DNA of 39,227 nucleotides from an uncultured Nitrososphaerales archaeon (lineage in GTDB: Archaea; Thermoproteota; Nitrososphaeria; Nitrososphaerales; Nitrososphaeraceae). Of this stretch, positions 5,071 through 34,495 are shown piece by piece; positions within the stretch are counted from its first letter, which is position 1, and every line of letters starts with the position of its first letter. The position numbers and the translations under genes are program-made. The stretch is from NCBI GenBank assembly GCA_963709405.1, contig CAVPXM010000051.1:1-39227 (forward strand), written 5' to 3'. The notes beneath the pieces were generated by a model. The model was not told where the DNA came from. It worked only from the letters and a program-made list of their open reading frames with translations, and searched no databases.

Positions 5071-6247
5071 CAGTTATGTAAAGAATATGTAATGCTCTTC
5101 TGTAAACTAACAGTGCTCGTTCAGATACCATAACACCTTTAGCTTACTCTCTTTTAAATTATCAGCATGAGGGATACATTCCTCAGATTGCTTACAAATA
5201 ATGAAAAGAATAGGTTACATGATAGCATACTTGAGGATAGAGAATCTGGATACCGTGCAAAGATTATTCTTCTTAAGGATGATGGATACACAGTTCCTGA
5301 AATAAGGAAGGCAACTAACCATCATGATAGCAACATAAGAAAATGGATTCATCGTTTCAATGAAAAAGGTATAGATGGAATAGCATCAAAAATACACAAG
5401 CATAAACCAATCAAAATATCTGACGATATGGAGAATAAGATTGTGGAGATAGCAACCAAAAATTCAAGAAAAGATTATGGATTACCATTTTCCACATGGT
5501 CATTAAGAGTACTAGCAGGATTTGTCTCCAAGGAGATGAGCCTTGTAGATGCTATCAGCCACACCGAGGTTAGAAATATCCTCCTAAAACACGGAATAAA
5601 ATATAGGCAGTCAAAGATTACTCTGGAATACAGCCTAGATCCTGAATATCATTTGAAAAAAAGAGAATTGAAGAACTAAGATACAGTAACCTGTCTTCTG
5701 ACTCAGTACTACTCTACGAGGATGAGAAAGGACCGATAGTAGCAAAAACATATGGCGGTACATCTTGGTCCTCTACACAGTCTAAGGTATCCAAAGCTCA
5801 AAAGACAAAGGGAATTCTAAACGTGTTTGGTATATACGATTATACCAATGATCAAATGTGGACGCATGGCTACAAAAAGAAAACCGGAAAACAGTTTTTA
5901 GATTTTATCAAAAGAATGGACCAAAAGTATGACGATAGTATCAAGCAGATATTTCTGATACTTGATAACGCATCGATACATAAATCAAACAAGGTGAAAG
6001 CAGTATTATCCAAATATCATCCAAGGATACACCTTGTATTTCTTCCCACCAGATCACCCGAGCTCAATCTGATAGAGGTAAGATGGCTATGGATGCAACG
6101 ACAAGCAATAAACAATTCCACCTTTCAAAATGAACGTGATATAGGTAAAGCAGTATCTGATTGGGCATGTGATTATAATAAAAACATAGAGGCAAAACTA
6201 GTATAAACAGTTTACATGGAGAAAGCATCTACATGTTTACATAACTC
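5071..6247 (+). mobile_element. IS630-family element, copy 1 (1177 bp)
   Basis: Imperfect TIR (c/g)agttatgtaaa; flanked by TTAA at 5067-5070 and 6248-6251; near-identical to 26646-27822. Confidence 0.95.
5167..6206 (+). CDS. IS630 transposase (two ORFs joined by a probable -1 programmed frameshift at A7G near 5656-5663)
   Basis: HTH-containing ORF A; the -1 frame is open through YEDEKG, LDNAS and PELNLIE (DDE motifs). Confidence 0.9.
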
Positions 6248-26301: not shown

Positions 26302-27998
26302 TTATGGCAGAACTTCCAGGTGGCCTATCATGCTGGGTAGATCATACCTACAATAGTATGTAAAACCACCTACTGTATCAGCCATGAAACTAAATGTTGC
26401 ATTCTGCCCACCTGCTAGATCATGATCCATCTTGTAAGGCGATTGCATACTGAATGTGTGTCTGTCTCTAGCTTCATCTGCAGTATTGTAGAAATGAATT
26501 GTAACGTTATCTCCTTTATGCACTATAATATTTGTCAGTGTGTATACGGCGACTGGCACGCCAAGGTTAGATTCGTCAGCGTTCAGTTCTTGGGTAAAAA
26601 TGTAATATTCATTTGGCTTTAGCCCTAGTGCACTAACCTCCTTAACAGTTATGTAAAGAATATGTAATGCTCTTCTGTAAACTAACAGTGCTCGTTCAGA
26701 TACCATAACACCTTTAGCTTACTCTCTTTTAAATTATCAGCATGAGGGATACATTCCTCAGATTGCTTACAAATAATGAAAAGAATAGGTTACATGATAG
26801 CATACTTGAGGATAGAGAATCTGGATACCGTGCAAAGATTATTCTTCTTAAGGATGATGGATACACAGTTCCTGAAATAAGGAAGGCAACTAACCATCAT
26901 GATAGCAACATAAGAAAATGGATTCATCGTTTCAATGAAAAAGGTATAGATGGAATAGCATCAAAAATACACAAGCATAAACCAATCAAAATATCTGACG
27001 ATATGGAGAATAAGATTGTGGAGATAGCAACCAAAAATTCAAGAAAAGATTATGGATTACCATTTTCCACATGGTCATTAAGAGTACTAGCAGGATTTGT
27101 CTCCAAGGAGATGAGCCTTGTAGATGCTATCAGCCACACCGAGGTTAGAAATATCCTCCTAAAACACGGAATAAAATATAGGCAGTCAAAGATTACTCTG
27201 GGATACAGCCTAGATCCTGAATATCATTTGAAAAAAAGAGAATTGAAGAACTAAGATACAGTAACCTGTCTTCTGACTCAGTACTACTCTACGAGGATGA
27301 GAAAGGACCGATAGTAGCAAAAACATATGGCGGTACATCTTGGTCCTCTACACAGTCTAAGGTATCCAAAGCTCAAAAGACAAAGGGAATTCTAAACGTG
27401 TTTGGTATATACGATTATACCAATGATCAAATGTGGACGCATGGCTACAAAAAGAAAACCGGAAAACAGTTTTTAGATTTTATCAAAAGAATGGACCAAA
27501 AGTATGACGATAGTATCAAGCAGATATTTCTGATACTTGATAACGCATCGATACATAAATCAAACAAGGTGAAAGCAGTATTATCCAAATATCATCCAAG
27601 GATACACCTTGTATTTCTTCCCACCAGATCACCCGAGCTCAATCTGATAGAGGTAAGATGGCTATGGATGCAACGACAAGCAATAAACAATTCCACCTTT
27701 CAAAATGAACGTGATATAGGTAAAGCAGTATCTGATTGGGCATGTGATTATAATAAAAACATAGAGGCAAAACTAGTATAAACAGTTTACATGGAGAAAG
27801 CATCTACATGTTTACATAACTCTTAACTGATGGCTGGGCCGCAGCAATCTTCATCACCCCAACCGGCATCAACAGTGTCAGACCTAAACTTAGTGTCAGT
27901 GTGGCCACAAGTATAAGTGCAACTGGCATCGTTAAAATCCTCCTCATTGCCATAACACATGCGGAACAAATGTATTTATTAAGCATATCTATGCTCAT
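26302..27998 (-). pseudogene. Secreted cupredoxin-domain protein split by IS630 copy 2
   Basis: Removing the IS and one TTAA restores AAAQPSVKEVSALGLKP; VHKGDNVTIHFYN, RHTFS and YYCRYDLPSM. Confidence 0.88.
26646..27822 (+). mobile_element. IS630-family element, copy 2 (1177 bp; transposase 26742-27781)
   Basis: Same TIRs as copy 1; TTAA at 26642-26645 and 27823-27826; only one difference from copy 1 was seen (GAA/GGA). Confidence 0.95.
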
Positions 27999-28481
27999 TG
28001 AACTCTAGATATTACAAAACGTATTCCGTTTAGGAGTATGATCCACGGCTGAATGGAAATTGAATCTTCCTCATCCATATAGGCAACTCTGAATTCGTTG
28101 CATTTTTGCACCACCAAGACTTCTGGGATAACGGTAGTGTTTCATTTCGTATGGAGATTATTCCCATATTGAGAAGGACGTCCTTGTTTTTCTATACTGT
28201 CCCTCTTTTAGGCTCAGGGCATACTGCAACCACATCCTCATTCCTATCTTATTATGATATGGTGAGGTTTATGCGTTATGATAATATCAAATCTGATTTT
28301 TTTCAGTTACAGGCTATATTATATGAGTTTTTACAATAGATAAATAAGTTGCAGGTAAATAGCTAGCCATTATTCCTCTTTATACTGTTCTTCCAAATTT
28401 GATGCATGTGGAAATTATTTCATTTAACAACATAACCTGAACGATGAGTGATAAAATATCGAGTCGATACTTTTATATCAG

Positions 28482-28872
28482 ATGAAAAAGGTTACGAGAA
28501 AAACAAAGAATAAATCAAAAATAATGTCAATTGTTGCTATCACAATTGCAGCGACACTCTTCGCGTCATCAATCGCACTTGCAAGCCCTGTGTTCGCAAA
28601 GAAAGATAGTAGTAGTAGCAACAGTGGAAGTAGCAGTAGCAGTAGCAGTAGCAGTAGTTCATCCGAGTGATTATGATAAGTTCCAGAAGTGTCTATCCGA
28701 TGCTGCGACAGGTGGTTCTGCGACAAAACAGCAAATAAAAGATTGCTTTGATTCTACATATGGAGGCGGTAGTAGCAGTAGCAGTAGCAGCAGTGGTAAT
28801 ACCGACAATTCTGGTGGCAGCAGTGATACAGGCAATAACCCAGACAACAATAATAACAAAGCCAACAATTAA
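28482..28872 (+). CDS. Secreted Ser-rich protein with a two-Cys core; +1 frameshift near 28663
   Basis: Leader ending PVFA, poly-Ser, DYDKFQKCLSDAA...IKDCFDSTY, then a second poly-Ser/Asn tail. Confidence 0.75.
28608..28658 (+). repeat. (AGTAGC)n coding microsatellite; second tract at 28771-28794
   Basis: Direct reading of the sequence. Confidence 0.9.
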
Positions 28873-29091
28873 TAAAAGTCGAGACATATGATAGAGTATT
28901 ATCTATACTCCTAATTCTTTTTTATTTTCTTCAAACTCGTTCTATGACTGAGTTGTTAAATGGTCTTGTTTAGCAGAAATAGCCTACCGCTCATGCTGCA
29001 TAGATAATAATATTTTAGCTTTTTCTATTTCCTTTCTTGCTTTTAAGTTTACTTTATAATTCAAGTTCCGTGGCATTTCCGTTATTGTTTA

Positions 29092-29458
29092 CTACTTTTT
29101 TTCAAAGATTCTTTCTTTATTAGTTGTCGTAGAGCTTACATCTGCAGTAGTAATATTTGTATTTCTTGCAAAATCTAAGAAATCTTTAATCCATTTCTTA
29201 TAAGCATCTATACCATTTTTGGTTATCTTATAGAATGTGAGATTGGAAGAAGTATTTACCGATATAATGTATCCATTCTTCTCAAGTGAATTTATCATGA
29301 GATTCACTCTATCGGGTCTCTGTTGTTTAATACTTCGAATATTTGTCACGATGTTATATTTACTTACGGGTATTTTTGTGAATTTGTATAGAGATATTCA
29401 AGGATTGAAAGCATAGTGTATTCTGATGAGAAGCGATTTTTCTTCTTCTGCCTCTCAT
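29092..29458 (-). CDS. Winged-helix DNA-binding protein with 5' frameshifts
   Basis: MRGRRRK..SSEYTMLSILEYLY..IPVSKYNIVTNI...LEKNGYI...YKITKNG. Confidence 0.7.
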
Positions 29459-29609
29459 TTTCCTTTCCTCTCCTTGAAAACACGATTTTCTTACCTGAGT
29501 TGAGTCAAGTTAAACTTGGAATATATATAAGCAAATTTAGCAATTCAATAATCCAACAATTTACAGTGCTTGCATGGTCATGAAGATAAGCAGACGTTTG
29601 CTCGCCAAG

Positions 29610-29963
29610 TTATCTGGGACTATAAAATATTACTGCTGCACCCGATAACACAATAAATGATCCAATGACTTCATATCTATCTGGTTTCTTTTTGTCTATC
29701 AATACTCCCCAGATAATAGAAGATACTACAAAGATTCCACCGTAGGCTGCATATACTCTACCAAAGTTTGATGGTTGGAGCGTTGGAAGAATACCATAAA
29801 TAAATAAAATTACTCCACCAACTAAACCAAGAATTATCGTCTTCTTTTTCCTTATCCATGACCAAATAAGATATCCTCCACCAATCTCTGCAACTGCTGC
29901 GGTAAAGAATAAAGTCAGGGTAACTATGATTAGTATTACTGTTGATTGACCCAGATTGATTTC
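29610..29963 (-). CDS. ynfA: YnfA/UPF0060 (SMR-superfamily) membrane protein, copy 2; start out of frame
   Basis: Open frame FFTAAVAEIGGGYLIW...PTLQPSNFGRVYAAYGGIF...PDRYE; the ATG at 29973 is off by one base, or a CTG at 29954 is used. Confidence 0.88.
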   Translation of the reverse strand, partial: EINLGQSTVILIIVTLTLFFTAAVAEIGGGYLIWSWIRKKKTIILGLVGGVILFIYGILPTLQPSNFGRVYAAYGGIFVVSSIIWGVLIDKKKPDRYEVIGSFIVLSGAAVIFYSPR

Positions 29964-30316
29964 TTACCACCATTCTTTCTAGGCATATAAAATATCACTA
30001 CAACTCCAATAATTGCAATGATTGCTCCTAAAATATCATAGATGTCAGGAACAACCCTTTCAAACAACCATCCCCAAGCTATGGCCATAATAATAAAGAT
30101 TCCACCGTAGCCTGCATAAATTCGATGGAAGTGAGATGGTTGAAAGGTAGGAATTATCCCATAAACAAACAAAACAAACCCACCCATAACTCCTAAAACC
30201 CAACTCATTTCTTCTCTTAACCATAACCATATTAGATATCCGCCACCAATTTCACATAAACCAGCAAGAAAAAATAAGAATAAACTAATTGAGATATTTT
30301 TTATATTACCATTCAA
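29936..30316 (-). CDS. ynfA: YnfA/UPF0060 membrane protein, copy 1
   Basis: AGLCEIGGGYLIW...RIYAGYGGIF...PDIYD. Confidence 0.9.
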   Translation of the reverse strand: MNGNIKNISISLFLFFLAGLCEIGGGYLIWLWLREEMSWVLGVMGGFVLFVYGIIPTFQPSHFHRIYAGYGGIFIIMAIAWGWLFERVVPDIYDILGAIIAIIGVVVIFYMPRKNGGKKSIWVNQQ

Positions 30317-30427: not shown

Positions 30428-30562
30428 TTACTCCGTTTCTGCATGAATATTTATACAGCAGCAAATGTTCTTTATGCAATGCTTGCACATGCGAGGATCT
30501 TTCCGATCAATAATAATGCAATCGGTAGGTGCACATAAGCACTCCGAGCATTTGATATTCAT
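30428..30562 (-). CDS. 44-aa Cys-rich metallothionein-like protein
   Basis: MNIKCSECLCAPTDCIIIDRKDPRMCKHCIKNICCCINIHAETE*, with 9 Cys and 2 His. Confidence 0.75.
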   Translation of the reverse strand: MNIKCSECLCAPTDCIIIDRKDPRMCKHCIKNICCCINIHAETE

Positions 30563-30628
30563 ACATAACACTTCCGATTACCGTTATTAATGATTTTCAA
30601 AAAAGAAACATTGAATTGTATCAAACCT

Positions 30629-31043
30629 TTAGGAAGACCATCGTCTCATCCAACGCAATAGGTATACTATAGATTCTACCAACTCTTGCCCTTTATTTGT
30701 TAATCTATATTCTACTCGCGGTGGGATTTCGTTGGATGTTTGTCTTTCTAGAATTTCACTCTTATCAAGTTCCTTTAGCCTTTTCGCTAAAGTCTTGCTA
30801 CTAAAACCCGTCAATGTATTCCTGAATTTAATATATCTAACAGGAGTGGTGGTGCAACACAATGGTATTAGAATTTTGAGTTCCTCTCTTTGTAATTATC
30901 TTACGTAGTTTAGCAGTCTCTTTCATAAGAATATCGGGTTCATATCCATTAAAGTCACAATTTTGAATATCTTGAACAAGTGGTAATTTTGTCCTTGCTT
31001 TTACTGATTTTGCTCTTCCAGTTCTGTTCCCTTTTGTTTCCAT
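30629..31043 (-). CDS. HxlR/DUF24-family winged-helix regulator with one frameshift near 30878
   Basis: SSKTLAKRLKEL...EIPPRVEYRLTNKG; the two ORFs join as ITKRGT..ILIPLCCTT. Confidence 0.88.
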
Positions 31044-31114: not shown

Positions 31115-31906
31115 ATGTATAAACAAGATATTAAAGAAAAAGTCAAAGAAAGATATGGAAAGATAGCATTATTAGGTAATGTTGATTCTTGTTGTATGCC
31201 TGGAGAATGTTGTCAAGTAAATGATGACGATAATACCTTCACCTCACCTATACAATCTTCAAAAATAATTGGATACGATGCAAATGAACTAGAATCAATT
31301 CCACAATCTTCCATTCTTGGAGTTGGATGTGGTGCTCCAACAAAGTTTGCACATATTAAAGAAGGTGATCTAGTAGTGGATTTAGGTTCTGGGGCTGGCA
31401 TAGATGTTTTTCTGGCTGCTAAGAAAGTTGGTAAATCAGGTAGAGTAATTGGTATTGATATGACAGACGAAATGTTAGAAAAAGCAAGGAACAATGCGAA
31501 AGAAAATGGTTATGTGAATGTAGAGTTTAGAAAAGGAGACATAGAAACAAGAATACCTGTAGAAGATAATAGTGTAGATGTTGTTATTAGCAATTGTGTT
31601 ATTAATCTGACAAATAATAAAATTAACACATTCAAAGAGGTATATAGAATTCTTAAACCCAACGGAATCGGCAGAATGATAATCTCTGATTTGGTAACAG
31701 ATAAGGAGATAGATAAAAAATCAATCGATCCTGACAAGTGGTGTAGTTGTATTGATGGTGCATTAACAAAAGAAAACTATCTTGATAGCATTAGAAGGGC
31801 AGGATTTTCTAATGTAGAAGTATTGGAAGAGAAATTATATATGGATGGTGATAATGTGCAAGGCAGAAGAATTACCAGTTTGGTGATAAAGGCAATAAAG
31901 ATCTGA
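31115..31906 (+). CDS. arsM: Arsenite S-adenosylmethionine methyltransferase
   Basis: N-terminal CC pairs, LGVGCGAP, DLGSGAGID, SNCVINL and WCSCIDGA. Confidence 0.93.
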   Translation: MYKQDIKEKVKERYGKIALLGNVDSCCMPGECCQVNDDDNTFTSPIQSSKIIGYDANELESIPQSSILGVGCGAPTKFAHIKEGDLVVDLGSGAGIDVFLAAKKVGKSGRVIGIDMTDEMLEKARNNAKENGYVNVEFRKGDIETRIPVEDNSVDVVISNCVINLTNNKINTFKEVYRILKPNGIGRMIISDLVTDKEIDKKSIDPDKWCSCIDGALTKENYLDSIRRAGFSNVEVLEEKLYMDGDNVQGRRITSLVIKAIKI

Positions 31907-31926
31907 AGGAGAGGAGAATTCGAGTT

Positions 31927-32376
31927 ATGAAATTTTCATTTGGCAGTAGTAGTAAATCAAAGGCAAAGCACACAATTCTTTTTGTATGTATACAAAATGC
32001 AGGTCGTAGTCAGATGGCTGAGGGATTCTTTAGAAAGTATGCTCCCGAAGGCTATGAACCATTAAGTGCTGGAACCAAACCTACTTCAGAAATAAATCCA
32101 ATTGCAATACAAGCAATGAAAGAAGTAGGAATAGACATCAGCAAGCAGAGACCTAAAGATATCACTGAAGACATGATGAGAAACTCTACCAAAATAGTAA
32201 ACATGGGATGTATGGAAAAGGACTGGTGTCCTACCGCGTTCGTTCCTAATCTCGTAGACTGGGGAATAGAAGATCCAAAGGGTAAATCAATAGAAAAGGT
32301 TAGAGAAATCAGAGATGAAATTGAACAGAGAGTAAGAGAATTGACTGTAAACCTACCTAAAGATGTTGACCATTAG
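31927..32376 (+). CDS. arsC: Arsenate reductase, LMW-PTP (thioredoxin-coupled) type
   Basis: CIQNAGRSQMAE (CX5R), SAGT, MGC...CP and DWGIEDP. Confidence 0.92.
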   Translation: MKFSFGSSSKSKAKHTILFVCIQNAGRSQMAEGFFRKYAPEGYEPLSAGTKPTSEINPIAIQAMKEVGIDISKQRPKDITEDMMRNSTKIVNMGCMEKDWCPTAFVPNLVDWGIEDPKGKSIEKVREIRDEIEQRVRELTVNLPKDVDH

Positions 32377-32442
32377 ATGTTTCATCTTTATTAATCCACA
32401 GATTTCAACCTGATTGATTGATTGATTATTATACCTATAGGA

Positions 32443-33189
32443 TTGAAACAGAAAACCTTACTTACAAAGATAGCAAATGGATTAACTTCTAACCAGCGAA
32501 TATTTTTTGTAGAAATTATTGGCACATTCATAGTAGTAGTTCTTGCAACAGGTTCAGTGGTAATTGATGCCAAATTAAATGGAATATTAGGTATACCTTT
32601 CATTGCATTTGCTCCATTTATAGGAGTTGCTGTAGGAGTCTACTTATTTGGAAAAATATCTATGGCTCATTTCAATCCTGCTGTGACATTAGGGTTTCTT
32701 ATTACTAAACATATAACAAGAATCCAGTTATTTTATTACTTTTCGGCAGAGATAATAGGTGCCTTACTTGCAAGTCTTTTTGTAAAATTTGCAATAGGTA
32801 GTGAGGCAAACCTAGGAGCAAATGCTCCAAATTATGCATTTCCTATACCAGTAATAATTGGAGTTGAAATTGCGGCTTCTGCAATGCTAATGGCGGTTAT
32901 CTTTGTAGTTGTCTATACTAGAGGATTAAGAGGATTTAGTGGTATTGCTATAGGTGGTATGGTTGGATTAGATATATTCTTTCTAGCGTTTATATCTGGC
33001 GCTTCAATGAATCCTGCTCGCTCCCTGGCTCCCGCACTTGTCTCTGGAGTCTTGAACAATTTATGGCTTTATTGGTCGGCTACATTTATAGGCACATCAA
33101 TAGTTGCCTTAATGTTTAGAAGGCGTTTATATCAAAAAAATCATAGTTCGTGTTATATTCTACCAAATAAGAAAGTAATGAACAGATAA
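32443..33189 (+). CDS. MIP-family aquaporin, probable As(III) or methyl-arsenical channel
   Basis: HFNPAVT and SMNPARS; co-oriented after arsC; TTG start assumed. Confidence 0.9.
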   Translation: MKQKTLLTKIANGLTSNQRIFFVEIIGTFIVVVLATGSVVIDAKLNGILGIPFIAFAPFIGVAVGVYLFGKISMAHFNPAVTLGFLITKHITRIQLFYYFSAEIIGALLASLFVKFAIGSEANLGANAPNYAFPIPVIIGVEIAASAMLMAVIFVVVYTRGLRGFSGIAIGGMVGLDIFFLAFISGASMNPARSLAPALVSGVLNNLWLYWSATFIGTSIVALMFRRRLYQKNHSSCYILPNKKVMNR

Positions 33190-34495
33190 TAGACAGCAAT
33201 ATTAGTCGCAGTTACTATGAATCCTACTTTAAGAAATTCAGAATATGAAAATGCTTTGACACCTTTGGATTCAGCGGCCTCTATAATGATAATGTTGCTT
33301 GCCGCTCCAAATATTGTAAGGTTACCAGCAATAGTGCTTGCTGCGGCAAGCATCATCCATTCAGAAACATCATCGGCATTAAAGCCATTATCTATCATTA
33401 CATTATTATAAATGACTACGAAAGGAACATTACTTAGTATTTGACTGAATGTTACGCTAACGATTGAAATAATGGTATTGTTTCTAATTATATAATTGTG
33501 ATCGGCGACAGGGTTTGGAATATTTGACATAATCTCAGGGATTAAACCCGATGTCCATAGTGCAGCAGTAAATACAAACATAGGCAGCAAAAAATACTAG
33601 AACAGAATAATCTACGTTATACAATAGTTCTCTACGTTCGTTACTTAAAGCATAAAGTGCTATTGCCCCAATAGCGGCAATAACACTTATGTTAAAATAT
33701 GGAATACGAAAAAGAAACTGAAGAACTTCTGAAATTACAAAACCTAGAACAGTTAAGAAAAGAATAATAACTGAAATTCTGGCAAGATATGGGTTAGTAA
33801 TAACATTGGTCGACAATAGTGCATCGTCTTTAGTAATTACAATCTTATTACCATGATTTACATGATTGGAAACTTTTGATAGTTCTTTTTTAAAATATAC
33901 TTTCAAAATAAAGTAAGTTAGAAATAGATTTAGTATAGTTGGAATAATTAACCATTTCATGAATGTTAAGAATGGTAGAGAAATACCACTTCTGATGGCT
34001 ATTAGCAGATTTTGAGGATTTCCGATAGGAGTCATGACACTTCCTATACTAATTCCAAATGCAAGTGCAATGAAGAGAACTGTTGGTCTAAGCCCAATTT
34101 GTCTTGATACATGTATTACAAGTGGTATACCAAGTAAAGCAATTGTATCATTTACTAAAAATGCAGAAAGTAATCCTAACCCTATAACAAATACGAACAG
34201 TATTGAATTAAGATCACTATTTGCTTTATCTAACATCTTCGCTGCCTACATACTTGAGCACTCCTGACCTGTCAAGTGCAGATACTATACTGAACATTCC
34301 AAAAAGAAATATAATTACATCGAGATTGATTGCTTTAAATGCATCTTCAATGCTAATGACTTGAAGTCCGACCATAAGGCCTGCTCCAATCAACATTGAT
34401 GTCCAAATTGGTATATTATTCAGTCTCCTTCTTTCTATGATAAGAAGGAATACGAGTGCAAGCACGCCTATTGCAATAAACTCATCAGTATACAT
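33153..34495 (-). CDS. ArsB/NhaD/SLC13-type anion permease with two +1 frameshifts
   Basis: LSAFLVND, TPIGNPQN, SQILSNVP and GNLTIFGAASN; three ORFs rejoin near 34245 and 33583. Confidence 0.88.

Follow-up and report, generated by a model that had tools for sequence, protein, structure and literature searches.

An apparently order-restricted nine-cysteine module, a candidate binder of soft metal(loid)s, in an archaeal arsenic resistance locus

Introduction

In the beta domain of metallothionein, nine cysteines hold three divalent ions. HMA domains (CopZ, MerP, NmerA) are hand-over units for soft metals of about 70 residues, with a ferredoxin-like fold and one CxxC, and occur free or fused to enzymes and pumps; NmerA is a domain on MerA. 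ArsD, a cysteine-rich helper from ars operons, has about 120 residues, a thioredoxin-like fold and vicinal cysteine pairs, and is a partner of ArsA. The TRASH motif comprises three cysteines (C-x19-22-C-x3-C), and the domain serves as a sensor on the regulators CopR and CopT. In the part of the published account drawn on here, TRASH is a domain by which sensors, transporters and trafficking proteins bind metal, with archaeal CopR carrying it as a sensor domain and the free TRASH protein CopM acting as a chaperone (PMC7830388). A cysteine-rich, cytoplasmic, N-terminal arsenic-sensing region is likewise described on the metalloid transporter ACR3 of plants, in the portion of the report used here (PMC13674352).

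Here we analyse a 44-residue open reading frame (ORF) in a 39,227-nt stretch of DNA (the window) from an uncultured archaeon of the Nitrososphaerales. Ammonia-oxidising archaea such as these drive soil nitrification and depend on copper; to our knowledge, little has been established about how they detect and deal with toxic metals and arsenic. We propose that the ORF encodes a cytoplasmic soft-metal(loid) thiolate module that derives from a membrane-fused type and belongs to an undescribed family restricted to one order, a reading that we regard as about an even bet.

Results

The ORF is read on the minus strand, from an ATG at 30562-30560 to a TAA at 30430-30428 (30428..30562), and its product, MNIKCSECLCAPTDCIIIDRKDPRMCKHCIKNICCCINIHAETE, has 44 residues, among them nine cysteines (positions 5, 8, 10, 15, 26, 29, 34, 35 and 36) and two histidines (28 and 40). 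The initial annotation had given this clean ATG-to-TAA frame and its composition exactly, leaving the strand unstated. The product opens with MNIKC and terminates eight residues past the CCC triplet, and free members in the family alignment described below end alike; on homology and tree placement, we read it as an orphaned nine-cysteine module of the fused type. An in-frame GTG at 30571 offers an alternative 5' extension (30563..30571, minus strand) to a 47-aa form, and in a paralogue on contig C73 of the same genome this GTG is retained and the position of the ATG is occupied by GTG. We favour the ATG because the family alignment places the start four residues ahead of the first cysteine. 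An A/T-rich element (30584..30597, minus strand), with TTAATAA at -28 to -22 and AAAA at -35 to -32 from the ATG, is largely preserved in the C73 copy; lying 22-35 nt 5' of the start, it would suit an archaeal TATA/BRE and a leaderless transcript. Short contigs that span the ORF at no less than 90% likeness come from oligo-dT soil RNA libraries of one study, which cover parts of the window at 90-99% likeness, gaps carrying no meaning; because contigs of such libraries may include DNA, they prove neither strand nor transcription, nor do they give expression level or transcript ends.

A winged-helix regulator of the HxlR type lies upstream on the same strand (30629..31043, minus; Pfam HxlR, E 9.9e-18), its TAA at 30631-30629 being separated by 66 nt from the ATG of the nine-cysteine ORF, precisely the spacing first reported. 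This gene is split into ORFs at 30837-31043 and 30629-30862 and, compared with three homologous copies, has a 2-nt deletion near 30877/30878, just before the DNA-binding core. The core bears a Cys-Cys motif (LCCTT) and the N-terminal extension another cysteine, and the protein may itself be an arsenic-responsive regulator of arsM in these archaea. Downstream, 111 nt from the stop of the nine-cysteine ORF, a four-helix membrane protein of the YnfA/UPF0060 family (29936..30316, minus; Pfam UPF0060, E 2.5e-39; NCBIfam YnfA, 130.9 bits against a cut-off of 114) forms the first of a pair. The second YnfA-like frame (29610..29945, minus; 49.6% identity to the first) is open, but in neither copy of the cassette (window; L009 7194-7511, plus strand) does an ATG, GTG or TTG precede the first helix; initiation may depend on translational coupling or on an unusual start codon. 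A small winged-helix gene (29092..29483, minus) ends the cassette; it is split into 85 and 39 aa here and whole (140 aa) in the C73 copy.

Divergent from the HxlR gene, an arsM-arsC-MIP channel cluster occupies 31115..33189 on the plus strand, with arsM at 31115-31906 (NCBIfam arsenite methyltransferase, 285.6 bits against a cut-off of 263), an arsenate reductase of the LMWP type at 31927-32376 (best NCBIfam matches all arsenate reductases, below their cut-offs) and the MIP channel, an aquaporin, at 32422-33189. Pfam and NCBIfam thus bear out the ars context recognised at the outset for all three genes. Adjoining this aquaporin, a permease of the CitMHS/ArsB superfamily (33153-34495, minus) is present as three overlapping pieces of 145, 233 and 89 aa and is probably a disrupted arsenite-pump-like gene.

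The ORF belongs to a family that we define here by the spacing C-x2-C-x-C-x4-C-x(8-11)-C-x2-C-x4-CCC, with a proline two residues past the third cysteine. All nine cysteines and the proline (Pro12) are present in the window ORF, which matches the profile in its own genome at E 6.9e-12. Matches at E<=10, many of which were weak, turned up in 35 of 61 related genomes when a single sequence served as the query. From these searches 49 loci were taken, in which tblastn with the window ORF and one fused N-domain as queries marked 53 places; 41 have the intact nine-cysteine pattern and a start codon (40 by filter, L012 judged by eye), about nine are degenerate through loss of cysteines or of the N-terminus or through a stop, and three are apparently spurious. 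The homologues with conserved cysteine spacing that the initial annotation had called for thus exist, and come from several genera and also from other families of the order. In a 39-row alignment the nine cysteines are invariant and the proline stands in at least 90% of rows. The module takes three forms, namely a stand-alone ORF, the N-terminal domain of a membrane protein, and a fusion domain in proteins from metagenomes. Stand-alone ORFs have 37-47 aa, mostly with a CCCW ending, start about four residues ahead of the first cysteine and end 2-13 residues past the triplet; the start and end of the window ORF fall within these bounds. Both the fused gene and free copies occur in cultured strains of Nitrososphaera, for instance in the complete genomes G019 and G036.

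A profile search of 1.84 billion representatives returned 123 clusters at E<=1e-3, 18 of them at E<=1e-10. Among 301 genomes sampled evenly across the phylum there were nine matches, comprising the window's own genome and eight of the 43 genomes of one other family of the same order, and the other 257 had no nine-cysteine match. In the window's own family the module is much commoner, with matches in 29 of 36 genomes at a loose threshold (E<=10). As far as seen, the module would thus appear to be limited to this order of ammonia-oxidising archaea.

Every invariant cysteine column contains both TGT and TGC codons, which indicates that the cysteines were retained through mutation. Pairwise dN/dS has a median of 0.21 among the fused N-domains, where 22 of 55 pairs could be used, and of 0.30 among the stand-alone ORFs, where 81 of 325 could, the pairs in neither set being independent; as the aligned sequences were selected by their cysteine pattern, these low values and the cysteine invariance are partly built in. 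That the nine-cysteine family is real is near certain.

No described family was found to which it could belong, in agreement with the first reading of the ORF. The 44-aa ORF matched no Pfam family at E<=0.1 and nothing in NCBIfam; the 39 members were without a Pfam match except one at E 3.2, and none of them matched a metallothionein family of Pfam at E<=10. The best hits of a profile search against the PDB had E 0.42 and 1.1, neither significant; the latter is the fungal protein LEU3, and a Zn2Cys6 binuclear cluster of the Gal4 type was set aside at this level. AlphaFold2 modelled the module poorly (pLDDT 65.5), and comparison of this weak model with 48,161 PDB chains by VIA-align gave no match at Z>=2. 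Unnamed small archaeal clusters in the ESM Atlas, at 0.90-0.91, are a lead only. A word-indexed search with the 47-aa form found none among proteins of 25-83 aa, a range in which such ORFs are rarely called. Nothing on the family was found in the literature, including under Nitrososphaera metallothionein, HxlR with arsM, and NTE_02692, although supplementary files might mention such ORFs. To judge from these searches, the nine-cysteine family is undescribed.

In the fused type, a protein of about 265 aa, the N-terminal nine-cysteine domain is followed by a linker bearing a Cys-Cys pair and by four long helices (genes at L005 1501-2283, L006 820-1608 and L033 3050-3853, with relatives). The helices of this protein carry conserved intramembrane glutamate and cysteine, which fall into two motifs that resemble each other, and a Cys-Cys loop lies on the presumed cytoplasmic side. 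Judged from the basic residues that flank the helices (positive-inside rule), the module, the linker cysteines and the Cys-Cys loop would all face the cytoplasm. The fused protein is represented by at least 1,027 clusters, of which the best 120, NTE_02692 of Ca. Nitrososphaera evergladensis among them, are labelled hypothetical or are unnamed. The four-helix protein has no match in Pfam or NCBIfam; its AlphaFold2 model has a pLDDT of 68 overall and of about 90 in the helices, and Foldseek found nothing for it in the PDB at E<=0.001 (best 0.31). We consider it a candidate for a new transporter family.

Fusions of other kinds were surveyed by inspecting 32 longer clusters and scanning ten of their proteins against Pfam. 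Three of the ten join an HxlR domain to a C-terminal module and two an ArsR-type HTH_5 domain to the module; one joins the module to Response_reg and one a MerB lyase to the module (P0186), and the remaining three carry an HFX_2341_N/CARF-like domain, an SLFN_AlbA_2 domain and no domain at all. Some of these proteins could be gene-calling read-throughs of adjoining genes. Two of the HxlR fusions have nearly no linker between the domains.

The surroundings of family members elsewhere were scanned over the two nearest ORFs on each side, which amounted to 150 ORFs at 46 loci with the window left out. The commonest Pfam families are UPF0060/YnfA (8), MIP (6), HxlR (5) and Response_reg (4), followed by ArsM-type methyltransferases, LMWPc and thioredoxin-like proteins (3 each), counts that are inflated by kinship of the loci. 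In all, 89 families occur, so that many members lie in unrelated surroundings; the 25 most frequent include no maturase-type family, and a reading as a RiPP precursor was set aside. A YnfA pair stands beside the module at seven loci in six genomes, one of which (G036) has the fused gene followed directly by the pair. A preprint on transposon fitness screens found that three to four bacteria specifically required UPF0060 to resist Tl(I), and noted that the family also adjoins czcD/zntA-like genes (10.1101/072470). An HxlR gene is followed by the module gene on the same strand at six loci, with two HxlR subtypes involved.

The window's genome (G000) has four further free copies of the CCCW kind (L009 3001-3132, minus; L009 10554-10682, minus; L042; L043). 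One lies on C73, 270 nt behind the gene for a P-type ATPase with a CPC motif. Another, also on C73, neighbours a DsbA-like gene and has one cysteine replaced by tyrosine; a third follows a second ars operon, whose arsM is frameshifted, and the fourth precedes an aquaporin fragment.

In the family tree the window ORF groups with the fused N-domains (split support 87/80), on a long branch (0.87), and most of these are 45-48% identical to it, free forms 30-46%; the linker and the four membrane helices that define the fused type are missing from it. A gene for the membrane domain is likewise missing from the genome assembly, which is 91% complete (best tblastn match 20 aa, E 0.12). In G014, a fused gene holds the same position, after HxlR and divergent from arsM. 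Contig C74 of the window's genome (about 5150-5315, plus strand) has a decayed fused-type N-domain, which is interrupted by a frameshift and an in-frame stop and is followed by no membrane domain. Taken together, the matching position in G014, the missing membrane-domain gene and the decayed N-domain on C74 make loss of the membrane part from a membrane-fused ancestor the simplest history that we can suggest for the window copy.

A second copy of the cassette (HxlR, module, two YnfA genes, small winged-helix gene) lies on C73, with nucleotide identities of 79-92% depending on the segment. The nine-cysteine ORF reaches 90.3% identity between the two copies and the intergenic DNA on its flanks 84-88%. 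The ORFs differ at 14 nucleotides, four of them synonymous and ten non-synonymous, and have a dN/dS of 0.54, which is not clearly below 1, compared with 0.34 for the first YnfA and 0.12 for HxlR. The dN/dS below 1 that had been suggested as a check is therefore seen in the family medians and not clearly in the window copy.

Discussion

Binding of soft metal(loid)s is the best-supported function for the family, and one that we consider somewhat more probable than its opposite on the strength of sequence and gene context. We infer that the module binds metal, faces the cytoplasm and works with its neighbours, and that the window copy may still be in use. With nine invariant thiolates in about 32 residues and hardly any hydrophobic core, the fold would be held by a small metal- or metalloid-thiolate cluster, around which the nine cysteines would wrap. 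The module would capture a soft ion, be it As(III), Hg, Cd, Cu(I), Zn or Tl, and its capture would be signalled to a regulator or the ion passed to a membrane exporter. The geometry of the fused protein would suit capture followed by export, and on regulators the module would occupy the position of a ligand sensor, as TRASH does on CopR. In this way the family would be used as HMA and TRASH domains are, namely free, as a membrane N-domain, and as an addition to HxlR or ArsR regulators, a receiver or MerB. The window copy would have lost its membrane part and now has an HxlR gene on one side and a YnfA pair on the other. Settings that range over arsenic, mercury, P1B-ATPase and YnfA genes speak against a single ligand.

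TRASH offers a close parallel in usage, since it too occurs on its own as a small protein, at the C-terminus of winged-helix regulators as a sensor, and within transport proteins; unlike TRASH/YHS, the module has nine invariant cysteines, no Pfam match and a range of one archaeal order. Metallothioneins, including the nine-cysteine beta domain of the vertebrate proteins and bacterial SmtA, are similar in being small, with about 20% cysteine and CxC, CxxC and CCC motifs, and the 44-aa ORF fits their mass and cysteine content. They differ in that they show no sequence match, whereas the module has a rigid spacing with a conserved proline, and a tryptophan in free forms, and serves as a domain of regulators and of a membrane protein, which metallothioneins do not. 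HMA domains share the role proposed here of a soft-metal hand-over unit, and the MerB fusion parallels the placement of NmerA on MerA; no similarity to their larger, single-CxxC fold was found. The cysteine-rich N-terminus of plant ACR3, as far as described in the portion of the report used here, is alike in placement and belongs to an unrelated lineage and transporter, the likeness being one of description (PMC13674352).

The reading that competes most seriously with a working module concerns the window copy alone and accepts the family as real. On this view the ORF is merely the surviving 5' end of a membrane-protein gene, a relic in decay that has stayed open by chance and has no function, and we give the reading appreciable weight, though less than even chances. 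Much of the locus accords with decay. The membrane domain is gone from the genome and a fused-type N-domain on C74 has decayed; within the window cassette the HxlR gene has its 2-nt deletion and the winged-helix gene is split. Counterparts in other genomes are degenerate in three of three cases, that of G006 having stops and lost cysteines, that of G001 having lost four cysteines, and that of G020 having its N-terminal half replaced, with an IS/transposase beside it. Neither the break in HxlR nor these counterparts figured in the initial annotation. The ORF also has a long branch, a dN/dS of 0.54 that rests on only 14 changes, and an identity between copies barely above that of the intergenic DNA around it. 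Against chance survival stands the fact that both paralogues in the genome keep the start, all nine cysteines and a stop at the domain boundary, which 14 random changes preserved in 7% of trials (0.07) of a neutral simulation. The frame further ends exactly where free members end, the A/T-rich element upstream is kept in both copies and, as a weak point, the RNA-library contigs cover the ORF. On this balance the window copy has roughly a one-in-two prospect of still being a working module.

More tentatively, and with a probability that we would place at around one in three or slightly lower, the module could be a lineage-specific counterpart of TRASH and HMA domains. It would act in cis on the four-helix exporter and on HxlR/ArsR proteins and, as a free protein of about 40 aa, in trans with the upstream HxlR, switching on efflux genes of the arsenic, mercury or thallium type. 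A complex prediction of an HxlR dimer with three Zn and the module scored 0.00, which speaks neither for nor against binding.

The initial annotation had proposed a peptide that sequesters As(III) or heavy metals, or an ArsD-like chaperone for ArsM. The general part of this proposal holds in so far as the family keeps company with metal(loid) resistance genes; its arsenic part does not, since nothing in the data is specific to As(III) and the contexts are mixed. A strictly arsenic-specific protein, be it an As(III) sponge or an ArsD-like chaperone for ArsM or the aquaporin, is in our view unlikely. It would be favoured by the position of the window copy, 66 nt behind an HxlR gene that diverges from arsM, and by free CCCW copies that lie 3' of an ars aquaporin on the same strand at three loci (G000:C2, G003, G034) and ahead of an aquaporin fragment at another (G000:C42); nine thiolates could hold three As(III), as a matter of chemistry only. 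Most nine-cysteine places, however, have no ars gene within about 3 kb, and thiol chemistry or several soft metals are suggested by the MerB fusion, the CPC-type ATPase, the YnfA pairs and the DsbA-like genes. ArsD is alike in being a cysteine-rich helper from ars operons, but the 44-aa ORF and ArsD show no similarity in Pfam or NCBIfam, no tie resembling that of ArsD to ArsA is apparent, and ArsA is absent among the window ORFs examined. We therefore prefer a general module for the sensing or hand-over of soft metal(loid)s to an arsenic sponge, given its fusions to HxlR, ArsR, receiver and MerB domains and its adjacency to a P1B-type ATPase and YnfA.

It is quite unlikely that the module is instead a structural zinc knuckle or a thiol-redox switch for contacts between proteins and has no part in metal detoxification. 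Fusions to receiver, CARF-like, SLFN_AlbA_2 and HTH domains would fit such a role, as would the weak and non-significant resemblance to the Zn2Cys6 protein LEU3 and the best NCBIfam matches of the HxlR fragment, which are the redox regulators RrpA and RrpB, far below cut-off. The recurrent neighbours are, however, transporters and enzymes of soft-metal(loid) resistance, and more conserved Cys-Cys motifs are present in the membrane partner. We give next to no credence to a frame that is open by chance or to a non-coding feature, for although cysteine density alone is within chance in this AT-rich genome (at least nine Cys per 44 aa in 82 of 102,938 open segments, against about 68 when residues were permuted inside each segment), the nine-cysteine spacing occurs in five segments of the genome and in none over five such shuffle rounds, homologues span genera, and Rfam had no match at E<=1 between 29500 and 31200.

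The preferred reading of a soft-metal(loid) module would have consequences mainly beyond this locus, and the family with its membrane and regulator partners is of more interest to the biology of archaeal nitrifiers than the single ORF. A family of at least 123 clusters and its membrane partner are at present invisible to annotation; most free members are shorter than 50 aa and no domain model exists. Provided that the module does bind soft metal(loid)s, it could be the sensor or chaperone so far missing from the ars, mer and YnfA systems of archaea, and would also provide a compact nine-thiolate scaffold for study. Should the sensor or hand-over reading be true, soil archaeal nitrifiers would own an undescribed metal-sensing circuitry, with HxlR in place of ArsR as regulator of an arsenic operon. 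The window locus itself illustrates a domain that was orphaned from its membrane partner and then decayed or persisted.

Elsewhere in the window, an IS630-like transposase lies in two pieces (26742-27781, plus strand; HTH_32 and DDE_3). With these pieces and its broken genes, the region resembles a decaying resistance island. Between the transposase and the cassette, a Ser/Leu-rich low-complexity stretch (28478-28891) is open in several frames, and a Cys-rich open segment lies at 28757-28921.
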